A stretch of DNA of 64,000 bases from positions 825 to 64,824 of the forward strand of contig JAVVFY010000001.1 in NCBI GenBank assembly GCA_032249395.1, in the 5' to 3' direction. Numbering within the stretch: the stretch's first letter is position 1; the number at the start of each line of letters is the position of its first letter. Below, piece after piece: positions 22,556-30,128 of the stretch. A program made the position numbers and the translations under genes. This DNA is from Candidatus Aenigmatarchaeota archaeon. Lineage in GTDB: Archaea > Aenigmatarchaeota > Aenigmatarchaeia > CG10238-14 > SpSt-28. The notes under the pieces were generated by a model. It made no database searches. It was given only the letters and a program-made list of their open reading frames with translations, and was not told the DNA's origin.

Positions 22556-23821
22556 ATGCTAGAATTTTTGTTTAAGCTTTTAGGAATGAAAAGAAAAGTA
22601 GAAGTAGAACAAAAGAAAGATTTCTTGATGATAAGAGAGAATGAACTATCGGAATTCGTTAATTCGCAAATAGTTAACGTAAGTAATCTAATGATGAAGG
22701 ATATTTTGAATTTTGTTTCGTTAATTAATGAAAAATTATATAAATTAGAAAATAGCGTTTCCTTATTAGAGCAAGAAAATATTTCCATACCGGACAAACA
22801 AGTTGAAAAAATTGTAAATACTAAGAAACACGAATTTTTAGGAAAGATTAAACAAGCAATTGAAAAAGTAAAAGAAGTTGACACATCTAATTTAGAAAAT
22901 TTTTCTAAAACATACGAAATTGCTTCATTAAAACTAAAAGAAGTGGATACAATTTCATTAAAGGATTTTTTGAATATCAGAAATTATTTTTCTAACTCAA
23001 AGGTTGTTTTAGAAAGTTTTAAAGATTTATTTGATAACTTTTATTCTTTTCAAGACAAACTAAAAAGCGAACAGTTTTTGGAAATGGTGGAGTTGAGAAA
23101 AGTTTATTCAGATTATTGTTGGATTAAAGATGAGATTTCTTCGAGGAAAAATGAACTAGAAAAGTTAAAATCGGAAATAGAGGAAAAAAGAAAAGAGGTT
23201 GAAAGAAAAAAGGAAGAGTTATTAAAGCTAGAAGATTCAGATGAAATGAAAAGATTATTAGAACTTCAAAAAGAAAAGATGAGAATTAGCTATAAAGAAA
23301 AAGAATTGGCTTCAATTTGTGTTGAAAAGTATTCCAGCTTGGAGCATATTTTCAAAAAGTTAAAGAGACAATTGGAAAATAAAAATTTAAGAGAAGCACG
23401 AATTATAACAGAATTTATCAATTCGCCTTTTGATGCTACAATAAACTATGATATGCAAAAAATTCTTGATGACATTGTTTCATTTATGAAAAATACTAAT
23501 TTCTCTAACGATGAGATATCAAAGATAGAAGATTTGGTTAGAGAAGAATTCTTCTTAAGATTAAAAAAGGAGTATTTTGATTTGGAAAATAGATTAAAAG
23601 AAATAGAAGATGAGATCGAAAAAATAGATATCGTTAATAGAAAACTAAAAATTGAAAATGAAATCAAATCTATCGAGTTTGATTTAGAAGAATTGAATAA
23701 AAAGCTTGAGAGTTTAGATAAAAAACTTAAAGAGCTTGAAGATCTACTTCCAAAATTAAAAGAAACTCTTGAAACTAAACTATCAAAAGTCTCTGGAAAA
23801 GAAATAAAGATTTTGGATTAA
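22556..23821 (+). CDS. Long coiled-coil protein, unknown function
   Basis: About 420 aa and rich in E, K and L with heptad character throughout. ATG at 22556 is preferred over the TTG at 22511. Confidence 0.55.
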
Positions 23822-26800
23822 CCGATATATGGCTGAATTTCTTCTTTTTGTATTTGTCTCCTTCTTTCCTCAAACCTTTTATAGTATTCAATCAGCTCTT
23901 TTGATAAGCTTGGTGGTATTTTCTTTAATGCTTCTTCAAAATGTTTTGCTTTTACTTCCTTAGCATTTATGTCTTCTCTTAAAGCATTCATTGCCGCTTC
24001 TTTAACCAAAGCTTCTAGATCAGCACCAGAATAACCTTCTGTTCTTTTCGCTAATTCTTCTAGGTTAACATCTTTTGCCAATGGAACTTTTCTTGTATGA
24101 ACTTTTAGAATTTCTAATCTTGCCTTTTCATCTGGTGGTGGAATGAAAATAAGTTTATCTAGTCTCCCCGGTCTTAATAATGCTGGATCAACTAGCTCTG
24201 GTCTATTAGTTGCTGCAATTAATACAACGTTTTTAACTTCCTCTATACCTGAAATTTCTGTTAAAAGTTGGGCTACAATTCTTTCAGAAGCTTCATGCAT
24301 TCCTATTCCTCTTCTTGGGGCTAGAGCGTCGATTTCGTCAAAGAAAATTATACAAGGAGCAACTTGTTTAGCCTTTTTGAATAAATCTCTGACTCTCTTC
24401 TCAGACTCTCCAAACCACTTGCTTAATAATTCTGGCCCTTTAACAGCAATAAAGTTTGCTCCACTTTCTGTAGCTACTGCTTTAGCTATTAAAGTTTTTC
24501 CACATCCCGGCGGTCCATAAAGCAAAATTCCTCTATGCGGTTCAATTCCAAGTCTTTCAAAAGATTCTCTATATTTCAAGGGCCATTCAACCATTTCTCT
24601 CAACAATTTTTTAACTTCTTCCAAGCCACCAATATCTTCCCATTTTACTTTTGGAACTTCTACCAAAACTTCTCTCATCGCAGAAGGTTCCACAACTCTC
24701 AAAGCATTTTCAAAATCTTGCTTTGTTACGACAAGCTTTTCTAAAACTTCTTTTGGTACTTCTTCTCCTTCTTTCAACTTATCTCTTATCTCTGGCAAAA
24801 CTCTCCTTAAAGCACTCATAGCAGCTTCTTTACACAAAGCCATTAAATCAGCACCAACAAACCCATGAGTTTTATCTGCTATTTCTTCCAAATTAACATC
24901 TTTAGCTAAAGGCATATTTCTCGTATGAATCTTTAATATCTCTAATCTACCATTTCTATCAGGAACAGGAACTTCAATTTCTCTGTCAAACCTTCCTGGT
25001 CTTCTTAAAGCCGGATCTATATCGTTCGGTCTGTTTGTTGCAGCAATAACAATAACTTTTCCTCTACTTTTCAAACCATCCATCAAACTCAACAAAGTTG
25101 CAACTATTCTTCTCTCAACTTCTCCAGTGACTTCCTCTCTTTTTGGAGCTATCGCATCAATCTCATCAAAGAAAATTATAGCTGGAGCATTCTTTTCTGC
25201 TTCTTCGAAAATTTTTCTTAAATTCGCTTCGCTATTATGAGCAAAAATTCCTCCAAAACCAGCAATGAAATTATGAGTGTTTTCAACTTCCACATCATAA
25301 ACATATTCTGGAGTTTCTATTTCTTTTATTTCAACAATTTCATCAAAGAAAATATCTCCTTCTAAAATCTTTCTTAAGTCGAGTGGAATATCCATTCTCA
25401 AAAGTATATTCTTCCCTATGCTCTTTAGACCATCATAACTTGAATCTATATTTACTTTTGATTTTATTGCATCAAGTGGAACTCTTTCTATTCTACCTTC
25501 CTCTCTACAAGAATTTACATACTCCTCAATCTTTTTGTTTTTAGATGGATTCAAGAATCCTATTTCCAAAAATCTCTCTAAGTTTTGCTTATCTGAAATA
25601 CAGATTCTAAATCTTCCATCTTTTTCTTCATATATTTTTGCAACTATTCCAAAGAATAAAAGCAAGTATGGAATATCATGGGCAATGTTTTTGCTATATG
25701 TAGCTATTTCAACTTGAGGCAAGTAAGTCTTTGTATTTAGAGTACCATCTCCACTTATGTATCCTTTGAGGAATGCTGCTAATTTTTCTCTTGAGACGTT
25801 AAAAACAAAACTAGGTATTTTCTTTTCTCTTGCATGTCCATTAAATCCTAGTGCTTTCATTGCTTTACCTAAAGCTGAGTTAAATATCCAAACATCAGCA
25901 GATTTGCTAGTGTTTTTGTAAATCCTAATTTTATCAAAAGCATTTGATATTATTGCAAGAACAAGCGGAACTTCTTCTGTGTTTAGAGAAAATCTTGGTG
26001 TATTTTTACTATAAGAACCTTCTGCTAACCATAAGCCAAAGAAAAACATTAAGCTATTTGTTAGCTTTAATTGTGAAGGAACTTTACTCCTTTTTGAATA
26101 AATGTTTATTCTTTCTTTTTCTTCGAAGCTAAGACTTATTTCGGCCTCTTTTATAAGCTTAACAAATCTCGAAACTCTTATGCCAATATTTTGATTCTTT
26201 ACGTCGTACAAATACTTCCTATTTGTTCCTAAGATTTTGGCAACTTTATCCCAACCCAATTTATTTGCAGCCATTTCAATAATTGTCCATACTTCCTTTG
26301 GTCTTACAGTCAATCCATAATCTTTTTCTTTCAAAACTTCAAGCAGATCAATTTTTTCTATTGGATTAGAGTTTTCTGGTATAATATTTGGAATTGCGAT
26401 GAATGAACCAACTTTTAATTCATCGGTTCTCTTCGATTCTAGTCCATTTTTAGTTAATGTGAATAGAGAATGATATTCTGTGACTCTAATCTTTCTTCCG
26501 CTTTTTGTTTTTATTTCGAATAGCTTTCCTGTGGCCTTATGTTTTATAAAATCTTTAATTTTTTTGAAAGTTACCTTGAAATTTTCATCAAAACAACCAA
26601 CTTCAACATCTTCTCTATTTTCAACAATCTTTCCTATTTCCTCAAGTTGTATAAAGCCATTTTTTCTTACTAGAATCTTTTCGTCATAAGGCAAAGATTC
26701 TCCATAAAACTTCGATAAGAATTCTGGTCCATTAACTGAAATAAAGTAAGCTCCGCTTTCGTTTGCTACAGCTTTAGCAAGTAAAGTCTTTCCTGTACCA

Positions 26801-27570
26801 GGTGGACCATACAACAAAACTCCCTTTGGAGGTTCAATACCAAGTCTCTCAAAAATTTCAGGATGTCTTAAAGGTAGTTCAATCATCTCTCTAACTTTTT
26901 CAACAACGGGTTTTATACCACCAATATCCTCATAAGTTACAGCAGGAATTGCCCTAGCTTCTAATTTCATTCCCTCTGGCAACTTCTTTAAAACTTCTAC
27001 TTCAGTTATCTCTCCAACTCTAACAATTTTGTTAGAAGGTTCCGTATTGACAACAATAAACTTTGTTTCAGATGGGAAAGGTGTGAAAAAGAAATCTTCA
27101 AAATCTCCACCAAAAAACTCTTCAAAAAAAGTAGTACCTCTCCTTCTTCCAAAAGCCGGAGCAGGAACAATGATATCTCCTTTTACTAAAGGTCTTCCGA
27201 GCAAATTTTGTTTTATTAAATCTGGAGCAACATGCAATATAACGCCAGGCTCAGCAGGAGCTAAAACAACTTTTCTTGCCTCTATTGGTTCGGCTCTTCT
27301 AACAATAACACTTTCTCCTACTCCAACGCCCGCGTTCTTTCTTGTAATTCCATCCATTCTTATAATATTCAAACCAATATCAGCAGGATAAGCTCTTCTA
27401 ACAATAGCGGCAGTTTTTCTCGTTCCTTCTAACTCGACAATATCCCCCTCTTTAACTCCAATTTTTCTCATTGCTTCGCTATCCATTCTAACAATTCCTC
27501 TTCCAGCTTCATCCTTAGCTGTTAATTCACCAACTTTAAGCTTTACTTCTCCATTTGCCATATTATTCAC
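23818..27570 (-). CDS. cdc48: CDC48/VCP-type AAA+ ATPase (two AAA domains) interrupted by an intein
   Basis: N-domain ([25 protein letters not shown]), D1 Walker A GPPGTGKT and D2 Walker A GPPGCGKT with IIFFDEID in both. It is 1250 aa, of which 488 aa are intein; the extein is 762 aa. Confidence 0.9.
25234..26697 (-). mobile_element. Intein with a LAGLIDADG homing-endonuclease domain inside cdc48 D1
   Basis: The host motif FYGE|SEANLRKIF is split. The intein starts [10 protein letters not shown] (block A, Ser1) and has IRVTEYH (block B, TxxH), [12 protein letters not shown] and [14 protein letters not shown] (two LAGLIDADG motifs). It ends [23 protein letters not shown], followed by a +1 Ser. 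Confidence 0.85.
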
Positions 27571-27629
27571 TTTTGCTCCAAATTTAAATTCTTACTTCAA
27601 ATCTATAAACTCTCAATACAAAAATTAGT

Positions 27630-30128
27630 ATGAAGACATATATCACAAGATTAACTCTGCAAGGGTTCAAGAGTTTTAATAGAAAGGTTTCTATTCCATT
27701 TTTTCCCGGGTTAATAGAAATTACTGGCCCGAATGGCAGTGGAAAAAGCAACATTATCGATGCAATAAGTTTTGTCTTGGGGAGAACTTCAGCCAAAAGT
27801 TTGAGAGCAGATAGATTGCACGAATTAATTTTTAGAGGGACTGAAACCAAAAAGCCTGCGGAGTATGCTAGTGTGACTATCTACTTAGATAACTCTCAAA
27901 AAGTTTTTCCGTTTGAAGATAAAGAAATATCAATAACAAGAAAGGTTAACAAAAAAGGATATGTTGTTTATAAGTTGAATGGAAAAACAACAACTAGAGA
28001 AAAGATTCTAGAAGTTTTATCTTTAGCTAATATAAGGCCAGATGGTTATAACATAATTCAGCAAGGAGACGTAACGCGAGTTTTAGAGATGAATCCAGTA
28101 GAAAGAAGAGAGATTATAGATGAGATTTGTGGGATTGCCGAATACAATGAGAAAAAAGAAAAGGCTTTGAAAGATTTGGAGATTGTCGATCAAAAGTTGA
28201 GAGAAGTTGAGATAATAGTAACTCAAAAATATGAAATTTTCAAAAAGCTAGAAGAAGAAAGAAACAATGCAATAAGATACCAAGAGTTGCAAAAGCAATT
28301 AACAATCTTGAAAGCTTCTTACTGGAAGAAAAAAGTTGAGAGTTTGAATGAAAAGTTAAACAAAATTCTTGAGAACATTTCAAAAATTAAAGAGAAAATA
28401 GATGAAGTCGATAAAGAAATAAAAGAGAAAGAGCAAAAACTTGAAGAGATTGAAAAAACAAATGCGGAAATCGTTAAAAAAATTATCGAGCTTTCTAAGA
28501 AGTTTAAGGTTGAAGAAGAAGCAAGCAAAATAAGGTCAAGATTGATGATTATTAGAGAGAAGATCGAAACTAATAAAAGAGAAGCAGAGAGACTTCAAAA
28601 TTTGATTGATGAAATGGAGAAACTTGAAATAAAGAAGGCTGAATTCACAAAAGAAATGTCAAGACCTGTTAGGGAAATATTGAATTTAAGACTTAGAGGT
28701 GTTTATGGAACGATTGCAGACTTGATTTCTGTTCCAGAAGAATATAAAACAGCAATAGAAGTTGCAGCAGCACAGCATTTATACGATATTGTTGTTGAGA
28801 ATGAAGACGTTGCTATAATGTGTATAGACTTTCTTAAGAGAGAAAGAATTGGTAGAGCAACATTTTTGCCATTGAATAAAATAAAACCGCAAGAGTTTAA
28901 GGAGAGAGAGTTATTGGATAGAGAGGGTGTTATTGGAATAGCAAGTAAAATTATAAACTATGATAGAAAGTTCATGCCCGCTATTGAATTTGTTTTTGGA
29001 AACACTTTGATTGTTGATAGTTTACAAACAGCAAAAGAAATCGGAATTGGAAAAGTCAGAATGGTTACTTTAGATGGAGATTTAATAGAGAGAAGTGGAG
29101 CAATTACAGGAGGATATTTAGTAAGGGAGGCAAAGAAAGATGAAAAAGAAAAAGTTAACGTTGAAGAATATAGGAAGCTTAGGCTACAATTGTTAGCAGA
29201 AGTTGAGGAACTGAAGAAAGAAGAAGAAGAACTTGAAAGAAAATTAAAAGAGCTTTCTACATCTGAAGAAAGCAAGGAAATGATAAATTTAGAGAAAATA
29301 AGGATTGCTTCTGAAAAAGAGGTTGAGAGGTTAAGAGAGACTAGAAGAAAATTACAAGACAGAAGAATTAACTTAGAAATTGAGATGAATAGATTAGCAA
29401 TAGAGAAGGCTAAAATAGAGACTGAGTTAGAAAATGCGAGGATTGAATATGAAAAATTTTCTAGTATAGAGACGATAGATGAAAGCTTGAATGTATTAGA
29501 GGAAAAATTGAAGAAAGTTGAGGAGGATCTTAAAAAAATTGGAACAGTCAACCTGAAGGCTATAGAAGAATATGAATTTATGAAAAAGGAATTTGATGTT
29601 TTGAAAGAGAAATATGAAAAGATTTTAGAAGAAAAGAAAGCTGTTTTGAAAATGATTGAGGAAATTGATAGCAAAAGAAGGGAAGTTTTCTTCTCTACTT
29701 TAGAAAAAGTTAGCAAAGAGTTTAACGATGTTTGTAATAGAATGATGGAAGGCGAAGGTGTTCTTATGTTAGAAGATGTTAATAATTTGGAGTCAGGTTT
29801 GTTAATTAAAGTTAAATTGCCGGATAAAGGAGAAGTTGACATTGACGCATTATCTGGAGGGGAGAAAAGTTTGGTCGCTTTAGCGTTTCTCTTTGCATTA
29901 CAGAGGTTTAAACCTTCTCCATTTTATCTTATGGATGAAATAGATGCAGCTTTAGATAAGGAAAATAGTCTCAAAGTTGCGAGATGGCTTAAAGAAGCAT
30001 CCAAAGAGAGTCAGTTTATCATAATTACACATAATGACATAACGTTAAAGTTTGCCGATAAGATTTATGGCTGTACTTTAGAAGAAGGAGAAACAAAAAT
30101 ATTGAGCATAGAACTACCAAAAGAATGA
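27630..30128 (+). CDS. smc: SMC chromosome-segregation ATPase with shortened coiled-coil arms
   Basis: Head: LQGFKSF...GPNGSGKSNIIDAI. Hinge: GVYGTIADLISVPEEYKTAIEVAAAQHLYDIVVENEDVA...GRATFLPLNKI...TLDGDLIERSGAITGG. C-terminal head: LSGGEKSLVALAFLFALQ...FYLMDEIDAALD. It is only 832 aa. Confidence 0.85.
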   Translation: MKTYITRLTLQGFKSFNRKVSIPFFPGLIEITGPNGSGKSNIIDAISFVLGRTSAKSLRADRLHELIFRGTETKKPAEYASVTIYLDNSQKVFPFEDKEISITRKVNKKGYVVYKLNGKTTTREKILEVLSLANIRPDGYNIIQQGDVTRVLEMNPVERREIIDEICGIAEYNEKKEKALKDLEIVDQKLREVEIIVTQKYEIFKKLEEERNNAIRYQELQKQLTILKASYWKKKVESLNEKLNKILENISKIKEKIDEVDKEIKEKEQKLEEIEKTNAEIVKKIIELSKKFKVEEEASKIRSRLMIIREKIETNKREAERLQNLIDEMEKLEIKKAEFTKEMSRPVREILNLRLRGVYGTIADLISVPEEYKTAIEVAAAQHLYDIVVENEDVAIMCIDFLKRERIGRATFLPLNKIKPQEFKERELLDREGVIGIASKIINYDRKFMPAIEFVFGNTLIVDSLQTAKEIGIGKVRMVTLDGDLIERSGAITGGYLVREAKKDEKEKVNVEEYRKLRLQLLAEVEELKKEEEELERKLKELSTSEESKEMINLEKIRIASEKEVERLRETRRKLQDRRINLEIEMNRLAIEKAKIETELENARIEYEKFSSIETIDESLNVLEEKLKKVEEDLKKIGTVNLKAIEEYEFMKKEFDVLKEKYEKILEEKKAVLKMIEEIDSKRREVFFSTLEKVSKEFNDVCNRMMEGEGVLMLEDVNNLESGLLIKVKLPDKGEVDIDALSGGEKSLVALAFLFALQRFKPSPFYLMDEIDAALDKENSLKVARWLKEASKESQFIIITHNDITLKFADKIYGCTLEEGETKILSIELPKE

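Follow-up and report, generated by a model that had tools for sequence, protein, structure and literature searches.

A predicted class-1 intein and its two-motif LAGLIDADG endonuclease next to the D1 pore loop of CDC48 in a Candidatus Aenigmatarchaeota archaeon

Conserved active-site loops are the usual insertion places of selfish inteins, and in the established homing-cycle model the endonuclease of many inteins decays once the element has become fixed. Some inteins show documented conditional protein splicing. Haloarchaeal MCM carries inteins at multiple sites, designated MCM-a to MCM-d (PMC10643990). One article (PMC10710043) mentions in passing that CDC48 ATPases of bacteria or archaea have inteins at orthologous sites; beyond that mention, the literature searched yielded no dedicated account of CDC48/AAA inteins in archaea. 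The intein described here lies in a CDC48 gene in the window, the whole stretch of 64,000 nucleotides that was analyzed, which belongs to an assembly of 752,806 bp in 25 contigs (89.5% complete), in keeping with the reduced genome presumed from the window by itself. We consider it likely that the insert is a canonical class-1 intein with a monomeric two-motif LAGLIDADG homing endonuclease, situated in the sole CDC48/VAT of this ~0.8-Mb DPANN archaeon and predicted both to splice and to home. The features are listed in Table 1.

The host protein is composed of a double-psi barrel N domain and two AAA+ modules of the CDC48/VAT/p97 type. It scores 1082.5 bits against the CDC48 model TIGR01243, above the cut-off of 802.65, which places it in that family, and its Pfam domains are CDC48_N, CDC48_2, two AAA, and two AAA_lid_3. 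In the PDB, the spliced D1 is nearest to VAT (5vc7 or 5g4g, 1e-190), and the KFYG sequence of D1 is, from established AAA+ knowledge, presumably pore loop 1. D2 has no insertion. The reading frame is intact across 1247 codons from the ATG at 27561, the start chosen by gene callers on three related contigs; this codon lies three codons after a GTG at 27570, and reading from the GTG extends the ORF (23818..27570, minus strand) by 3 residues to 1250. The start is ambiguous (window 27562-27640, minus strand), with GGAG 5 nt before the GTG and a TTTATA box ~40 nt upstream. The gene is the single copy of CDC48 found and, because no other was found in the 89.5%-complete genome, we infer that the cell needs efficient splicing.

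Table 1. Positions in the window of the CDC48 gene, its intein, and their functional elements
Feature	Position	Strand	Detail
CDC48/VAT precursor gene	23818..27561	-	1247 aa from ATG; N domain, D1, intein, D1 remainder, D2
N-extein (N domain and beginning of D1)	26698..27561	-	
D1 Walker A, GPPGTGKT	26785..26808	-	
D1 pore loop 1 (presumed), KFYG	26701..26712	-	aligned to VAT KYYG
Intein, 488 aa, Ser1 to Asn488	25234..26697	-	profiles, PDB sequence matches, AlphaFold2 model, Foldseek
Block A nucleophile Ser1 (TCT)	26695..26697	-	Ser in 96/96 family inteins extracted
Block B, T73-E-Y-H76	26470..26481	-	aligned to TSGH of PI-PkoII
LAGLIDADG homing-endonuclease core, ~residues 200-400	25498..26100	-	PF14528 (LAGLIDADG_3), 5.5e-17
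LAGLIDADG motif 1 (GLWLAEG; LAEG = residues 224-227)	26014..26046	-	catalytic E226 at 26020-26022
Conserved K292 of endonuclease	25822-25824	-	
LAGLIDADG motif 2 (GYISGDG; SGDG = residues 315-318)	25741..25773	-	catalytic D317 at 25747-25749
Blocks F and G (D468, H487, N488)	25234..25305	-	
+1 nucleophile Ser (AGC), first residue of C-extein	25231..25233	-	
C-extein (SEANLRK..., D1 remainder, intact D2, stop codon)	23818..25233	-	
D1 Walker B, IIFFDEID	25156-25179	-	inside C-extein

The intein corresponds to residues 292-779 of the 1250-residue reading, or 39.0% of the ORF, and splits D1 between Walker A and Walker B at FYGE/SEANLR (the slash marks the point of insertion), one residue past the KFYG loop. 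The sequence-only reading had described a 488-residue LAGLIDADG intein in D1 that makes up 39 percent of the gene, and its end points proved exact to the nucleotide, with profiles and predicted fold in agreement. The splicing blocks that it had listed (Ser1, TEYH, HN, and the +1 Ser) were all found at computed coordinates, and alignment of 44 sequences gave no sign that residues of block A, B, or G have been lost: S1, H76, D468, H487, and N488 do not vary, and the conservation of T73 is 90% or higher. The sequence matches, far above chance expectation, Pfam Intein_splicing (7.6e-32) and the NCBIfam models for the N- and C-terminal parts of inteins (TIGR01445 and TIGR01443); NCBIfam models of several archaeal proteins that contain inteins are matched in their intein portions as well. 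In the PDB, the best sequence match is PI-PkoII (9.5e-25), and TFIIB mini-inteins and VMA inteins are also matched. With the intein removed in silico, alignments with VAT of Thermoplasma and with human p97 have no gap at the junction, and the spliced reading is colinear with the contiguous empty alleles of congeners. In sequence and fold the insert is a class-1 intein, for which autocatalytic splicing is predicted. That it stays in the protein instead, as a non-splicing domain insertion or part of a pseudogene, or that it is an artefact of assembly, is highly improbable, given the intact 1247-codon frame, the recurrence of the same architecture on independent contigs from different samples, and the retention under selection of all catalytic residues; furthermore, 488 residues at the pore loop would not allow a working AAA+ ring, and there is no second CDC48 among the genes found. 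The GC content of the intein (29-32%) is lower than that of the exteins (35-39%), but the genome average is 31.9%, so that the intein matches the average and the exteins are the GC-rich part; the dip was therefore rejected as a mark of foreign origin.

An AlphaFold2 model of the intein was built from the 44-sequence alignment (pLDDT 95.2, pTM 0.93). Its top match in Foldseek is PI-PkoII (2cw7; E 1.3e-30, TM 0.74), followed by others that include TliVMA, PI-PfuI, PhoVMA, and PI-SceI. The N- and C-terminal segments together form a Hint fold, matched by full inteins and by the mini-inteins 5o9i, 6rpq, and 2lcj, and the central domain is matched by the free-standing LAGLIDADG enzymes I-DmoI, I-OnuI, I-AniI, and I-Tsp061I. 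In the model, residues 214-396 comprise two alpha-beta-beta-alpha-beta-beta-alpha halves, the arrangement of a pseudo-dimeric LAGLIDADG fold. The acidic residues that had been noted as kept in LAEG and SGDG, E226 and D317, are invariant in the 44 diverse family sequences, and K292 is too.

To estimate selection, dN/dS was calculated between the window allele and three related occupied alleles from metagenome contigs (L041, L043, and L042). The values are 0.094, 0.143, and 0.045, respectively, for the endonuclease core and 0.12, 0.14, and 0.075 for the whole intein; these values are of the same order as in the splicing segments and only somewhat above those of the exteins (0.012-0.14). On these substitution rates the endonuclease core is under purifying selection, which, together with the invariant acidic residues, supports a functional endonuclease, although selection on this domain could stem from a structural need for splicing and not from nuclease activity. 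It has to be considered, then, that splicing is intact and the endonuclease dead, the element being vertically inherited and stuck, with the domain kept for folding or splicing. Decay after fixation is common in inteins, as the homing-cycle model describes, and the intein persists on several related contigs, from which it is separated by dS of 0.2-1.5. Against this stand E226, D317, and K292, invariant in 44 family members, the low dN/dS of the core (0.05-0.14 when rounded), and the existence of near-identical alleles that differ in occupancy, in a genus where no congener searched has the intein. Since occupancy is polymorphic and the intein is absent from the congeners searched, fixation has not been reached in the genus. 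We regard a dead endonuclease as doubtful. The earlier suggestion that the endonuclease may still be active is strengthened by the selection on its core, by the three invariant residues, and by the near-identical empty alleles of congeners.

The sequence features, the fold, the family membership, the selection, and the pattern of alleles were observed, whereas splicing and DNA cleavage are inferred; by the standard class-1 pathway, the course of events for an active element would be as follows. Translation would give a 1247-residue precursor, in which an N-O acyl shift at Ser1 would be helped by T73 and H76 of block B. Attack by Ser+1 would lead to a branched intermediate, and cyclization of Asn488, helped by H487 and by D468 of block F, would release the products, namely a 759-residue CDC48 in which KFYGE-SEANLR is restored and a free 488-residue endonuclease. 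The endonuclease would be expected to cut intein-free CDC48 alleles across GGAGAA/TCNGAAGC, and repair off the occupied allele would then copy the intein into the cut allele.

A search of the CDC48 region against 5.8 billion proteins gave 436 matches; almost every one of the best 120 is an AAA protein resembling CDC48 that contains ~490 inserted residues. Insertion sites were mapped by anchoring on Walker A and Walker B; chained BLAST HSPs were discarded for this purpose because D1 and D2 are paralogous and the HSPs ran into the intein, which produced artefacts. From these best 120 of 436 matches, 96 inteins of the family were extracted. Eighty-eight are at the D1 site (pattern YG[EQ]/S...HN/SE) and eight at the paralogous D2 site (VGE/S...HN/SE); the HN terminus is present in all 96, and the +1 position is taken by Ser in 92 of them and by Thr in the other four. 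The sequence-only reading had not recognized this position in D1 as a standard site for inteins, a view that the 88 of 96 overturn: YG[EQ]/SE is, as judged from these matches, among the most often occupied intein sites of DPANN CDC48 genes in public data. Because the same family shares the site in many related archaea, the intein of the window is a typical representative of a mobile element already known. The source labels among the best 120 of 436 matches include Aenigmatarchaeota, Woesearchaeota, Nanoarchaeota, Pacearchaeota, Diapherotrites, and a few bacterial-labelled bins. In the last group, bins labelled Bipolaricaulia (P0075), Chloroflexi (P0080), and Omnitrophota (P0095) have CDC48-like proteins with a member of this family at the site, which could reflect mis-binning or real spread between domains.

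A second, unrelated site in CDC48 (site A, GPExM/C...HN/SK) is situated six residues upstream of the site occupied in the window (site B) and is found in both D1 and D2. Some DPANN CDC48 genes have two or three inteins (P0008, P0100, P0113, P0117, P0119, and L049 of genome G028), giving precursors of 1,700-1,900 residues that combine sites A and B in D1 and D2. In a quick tree of the inteins, that of the window groups in an all-D1 clade with Aenigmatarchaeota-labelled sequences, and the D1-site intein of G039, another genome of the order, belongs to the second major clade (43% identity). We read the presence of two deep site-B clades in one order as independent invasions, as far as a quick tree can indicate. 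D2-site inteins are interspersed among D1-site inteins in at least three places in the same tree, a scatter consistent with occasional moves between the paralogous D1 and D2 sites.

The distribution of the intein was examined in 41 genomes, namely the genome of the window and 40 species representatives of the same order, a comparison with the CDC48 alleles of relatives that had been proposed from the sequence. D1 site B is occupied in three of them (the genome of the window, G039, and G028), D1 site A in four (G024, G027, G028, and G032), D2 site B in two (G006 and G011), and D2 site A in one (G014); in nearly all of the remaining genomes none of the four sites is filled. The intein of the window is absent from every congener searched. 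The D1 site is uninterrupted in the seven congeners in which it was read (G001-G004 and G006-G008), and in G005 the match to the spliced gene of the window runs contiguously across it. The alleles of G002 and G005, which both run through the site, have 91.3 and 94.2% DNA identity, respectively, to the spliced gene; around the site the empty allele of G002 (L011) reads ...TTTTATGGAGAA/TCGGAAGCCAAT....

Divergence between these alleles varies along the gene. Over 264 nt upstream of the site, the window is only 0.8% away from the empty allele of G002 but 3.4 and 8.7% away from the occupied alleles L041 and L043; over 436 nt downstream, the difference from G002 is 2.3%, as compared with 13-17% further 3'. 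In the 3' third of CDC48, where the window is 13-17% from G002, it is only 1.7-3.5% from the empty allele of G005. Compared with L011 (G002), L023 (G005), L041, and L043, the exteins are thus a mosaic, nearest to G002 in the 5' two-thirds and to G005 and L041 in the 3' third. Because divergence is so strongly mosaic, the gene appears to recombine within the genus, and alleles with near-identical flanks differ in occupancy; as the relatives come from metagenome bins, chimeric assembly could partly produce mosaic patterns of this kind. Near-identical flanks around empty and occupied sites are what an ongoing homing cycle predicts. The allele comparison suggests that within the genus the intein was acquired, or that relatives lost it, very recently; together with the selection on the endonuclease core and the invariant catalytic acids, it points to an element that has moved recently and is probably still active, and that is predicted to splice and to cleave. 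Related contigs keep the intein at 82-95% identity (dS 0.2-1.5), and it has therefore been resident for some time in part of the lineage and is not strictly a fresh arrival. For the +1 Ser, the four occupied alleles read from the group use the codon AGC or AGT, and the empty alleles use TCG or TCT. This pattern was not accepted as the trace of a co-conversion tract, since a trivial alternative fits as well: both junction codons encode Ser, which leaves the limit of the element in the DNA uncertain by one codon. In the D2-site inteins and that of G039 the pattern is reversed or absent.

The location also raises the question of regulation, in that an intein at the D1 pore loop could hold the sole unfoldase inactive until redox state, temperature, or contact with a host permits splicing. 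The intein adjoins the loop that grips the substrate, its family recurs at the paralogous pore-loop site of D2, and conditional splicing is documented for some other inteins. Most close relatives, however, do without the intein, Ser1 and Ser+1 provide no redox handle, conserved active-site loops are where selfish inteins generally insert, and the sequence is in all respects that of a standard intein. We consider such a domesticated or conditional switch quite unlikely, and equally so its extension to DPANN archaea at large, in which conditional splicing at the D1 and D2 pore-loop sites would make a post-translational switch of CDC48 out of what is otherwise a purely selfish element. A splicing and homing intein remains the preferred reading.

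The CDC48 intein is the only one in the window, but the genome carries 11 (contigs C1, C2, C3, C5, C7, C12, and C14), which amount to 4,615 residues, 13.8 kb, and ~1.8% of the assembly; for that reason it is not exceptional in this organism. Five of the hosts were confirmed by profile search (CDC48, aEF-2, a terminase-like ORF, a HerA-like ATPase, and aRF1 (TIGR03676)), and six were read from flanking motifs only (MCM, RFC, aIF2-gamma, SufB, PEP synthase, and RadA). The single-copy aRF1 gene (G000:C1:130606-132201, plus strand), ~66 kb past the end of the window on the same contig, has a 141-residue mini-intein exactly at the catalytic loop. After splicing in silico this loop reads GGM-SQGRYDRL in place of the "universal" GGQ; in the readable relatives of the order, SQ is preceded by GGM, GGW, GGF, or GGA, and GGQ does not occur. 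The terminase-like ORF (G000:C14:8152-9276, minus strand; 913 residues) contains a 384-residue intein at ...GRGHR/C...HN/CSVVYMDE, and its spliced form matches the N-terminal domain of the T4-type terminase large subunit (PF03237, 4.2e-05). Possibly this ORF is a gene of a virus or provirus in a DPANN bin.

Taken alone, the intein of the window is of little weight, being one more intact member of a widespread family. The D1 and D2 pore-loop sites of CDC48 are hardly described in the literature searched, yet they are among the most often occupied in DPANN archaea. In this genus an occupied and an empty allele, nearly identical near the site, form a clean natural comparison that is suited to testing the activity of the endonuclease and its target. 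The assembly also illustrates that a heavy intein load is possible in a reduced genome of 0.75 Mb, with all 11 inteins in core informational and ATPase genes. What is new for this locus is the lack of the intein in the congeners searched, one of which has an empty allele only 0.8% different upstream of the site, the purifying selection on the endonuclease core, and the invariance of the catalytic acids.

The nearest described or deposited relatives are the inteins at YG[EQ]/SE in D1 of other DPANN CDC48 proteins, such as P0010 and P0011, labelled Candidatus Aenigmatarchaeota, and P0036, labelled Woesearchaeota, which have an insertion site identical to that in the window. They share with the present intein a length of 479-503 residues, Ser1, a start at SLPYDE, an end at GGIFAHN/SE, and both LAGLIDADG motifs; identities range from 38 to 95% (~60% for the nearest named relatives), and only the allele differs. 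The copy in the window is distinguished by its setting, a genus in which no other species representative searched has the intein. PI-PkoII, intein 2 of the Thermococcus kodakarensis DNA polymerase (PDB 2cw7), is the best match in both sequence and fold and similarly combines a splicing domain, a LAGLIDADG endonuclease, and extra DNA-binding parts, with blocks B, E, F, and G aligning residue by residue, but its host is a family B DNA polymerase, it has 537 residues, and the identity is 21%. The endonuclease-bearing TliVMA and PhoVMA inteins (7qss, 7qsu, and 7qst) and PI-PfuI (1dq3), likewise archaeal, share this architecture, and their hosts are P-loop NTPases or nucleotide enzymes; their E values in Foldseek lie between 1e-21 and 1e-16, but they differ in host and site and have 16-21% identity. 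In the manner of its occupancy, the locus resembles haloarchaeal MCM, also a ring ATPase, whose conserved motifs contain several neighboring, sporadically occupied sites comparable with sites A (GPExM/C) and B (GE/SE) of CDC48. The MCM inteins are unrelated and in a different host, whereas in CDC48 the sites are duplicated over two paralogous domains of one polypeptide.
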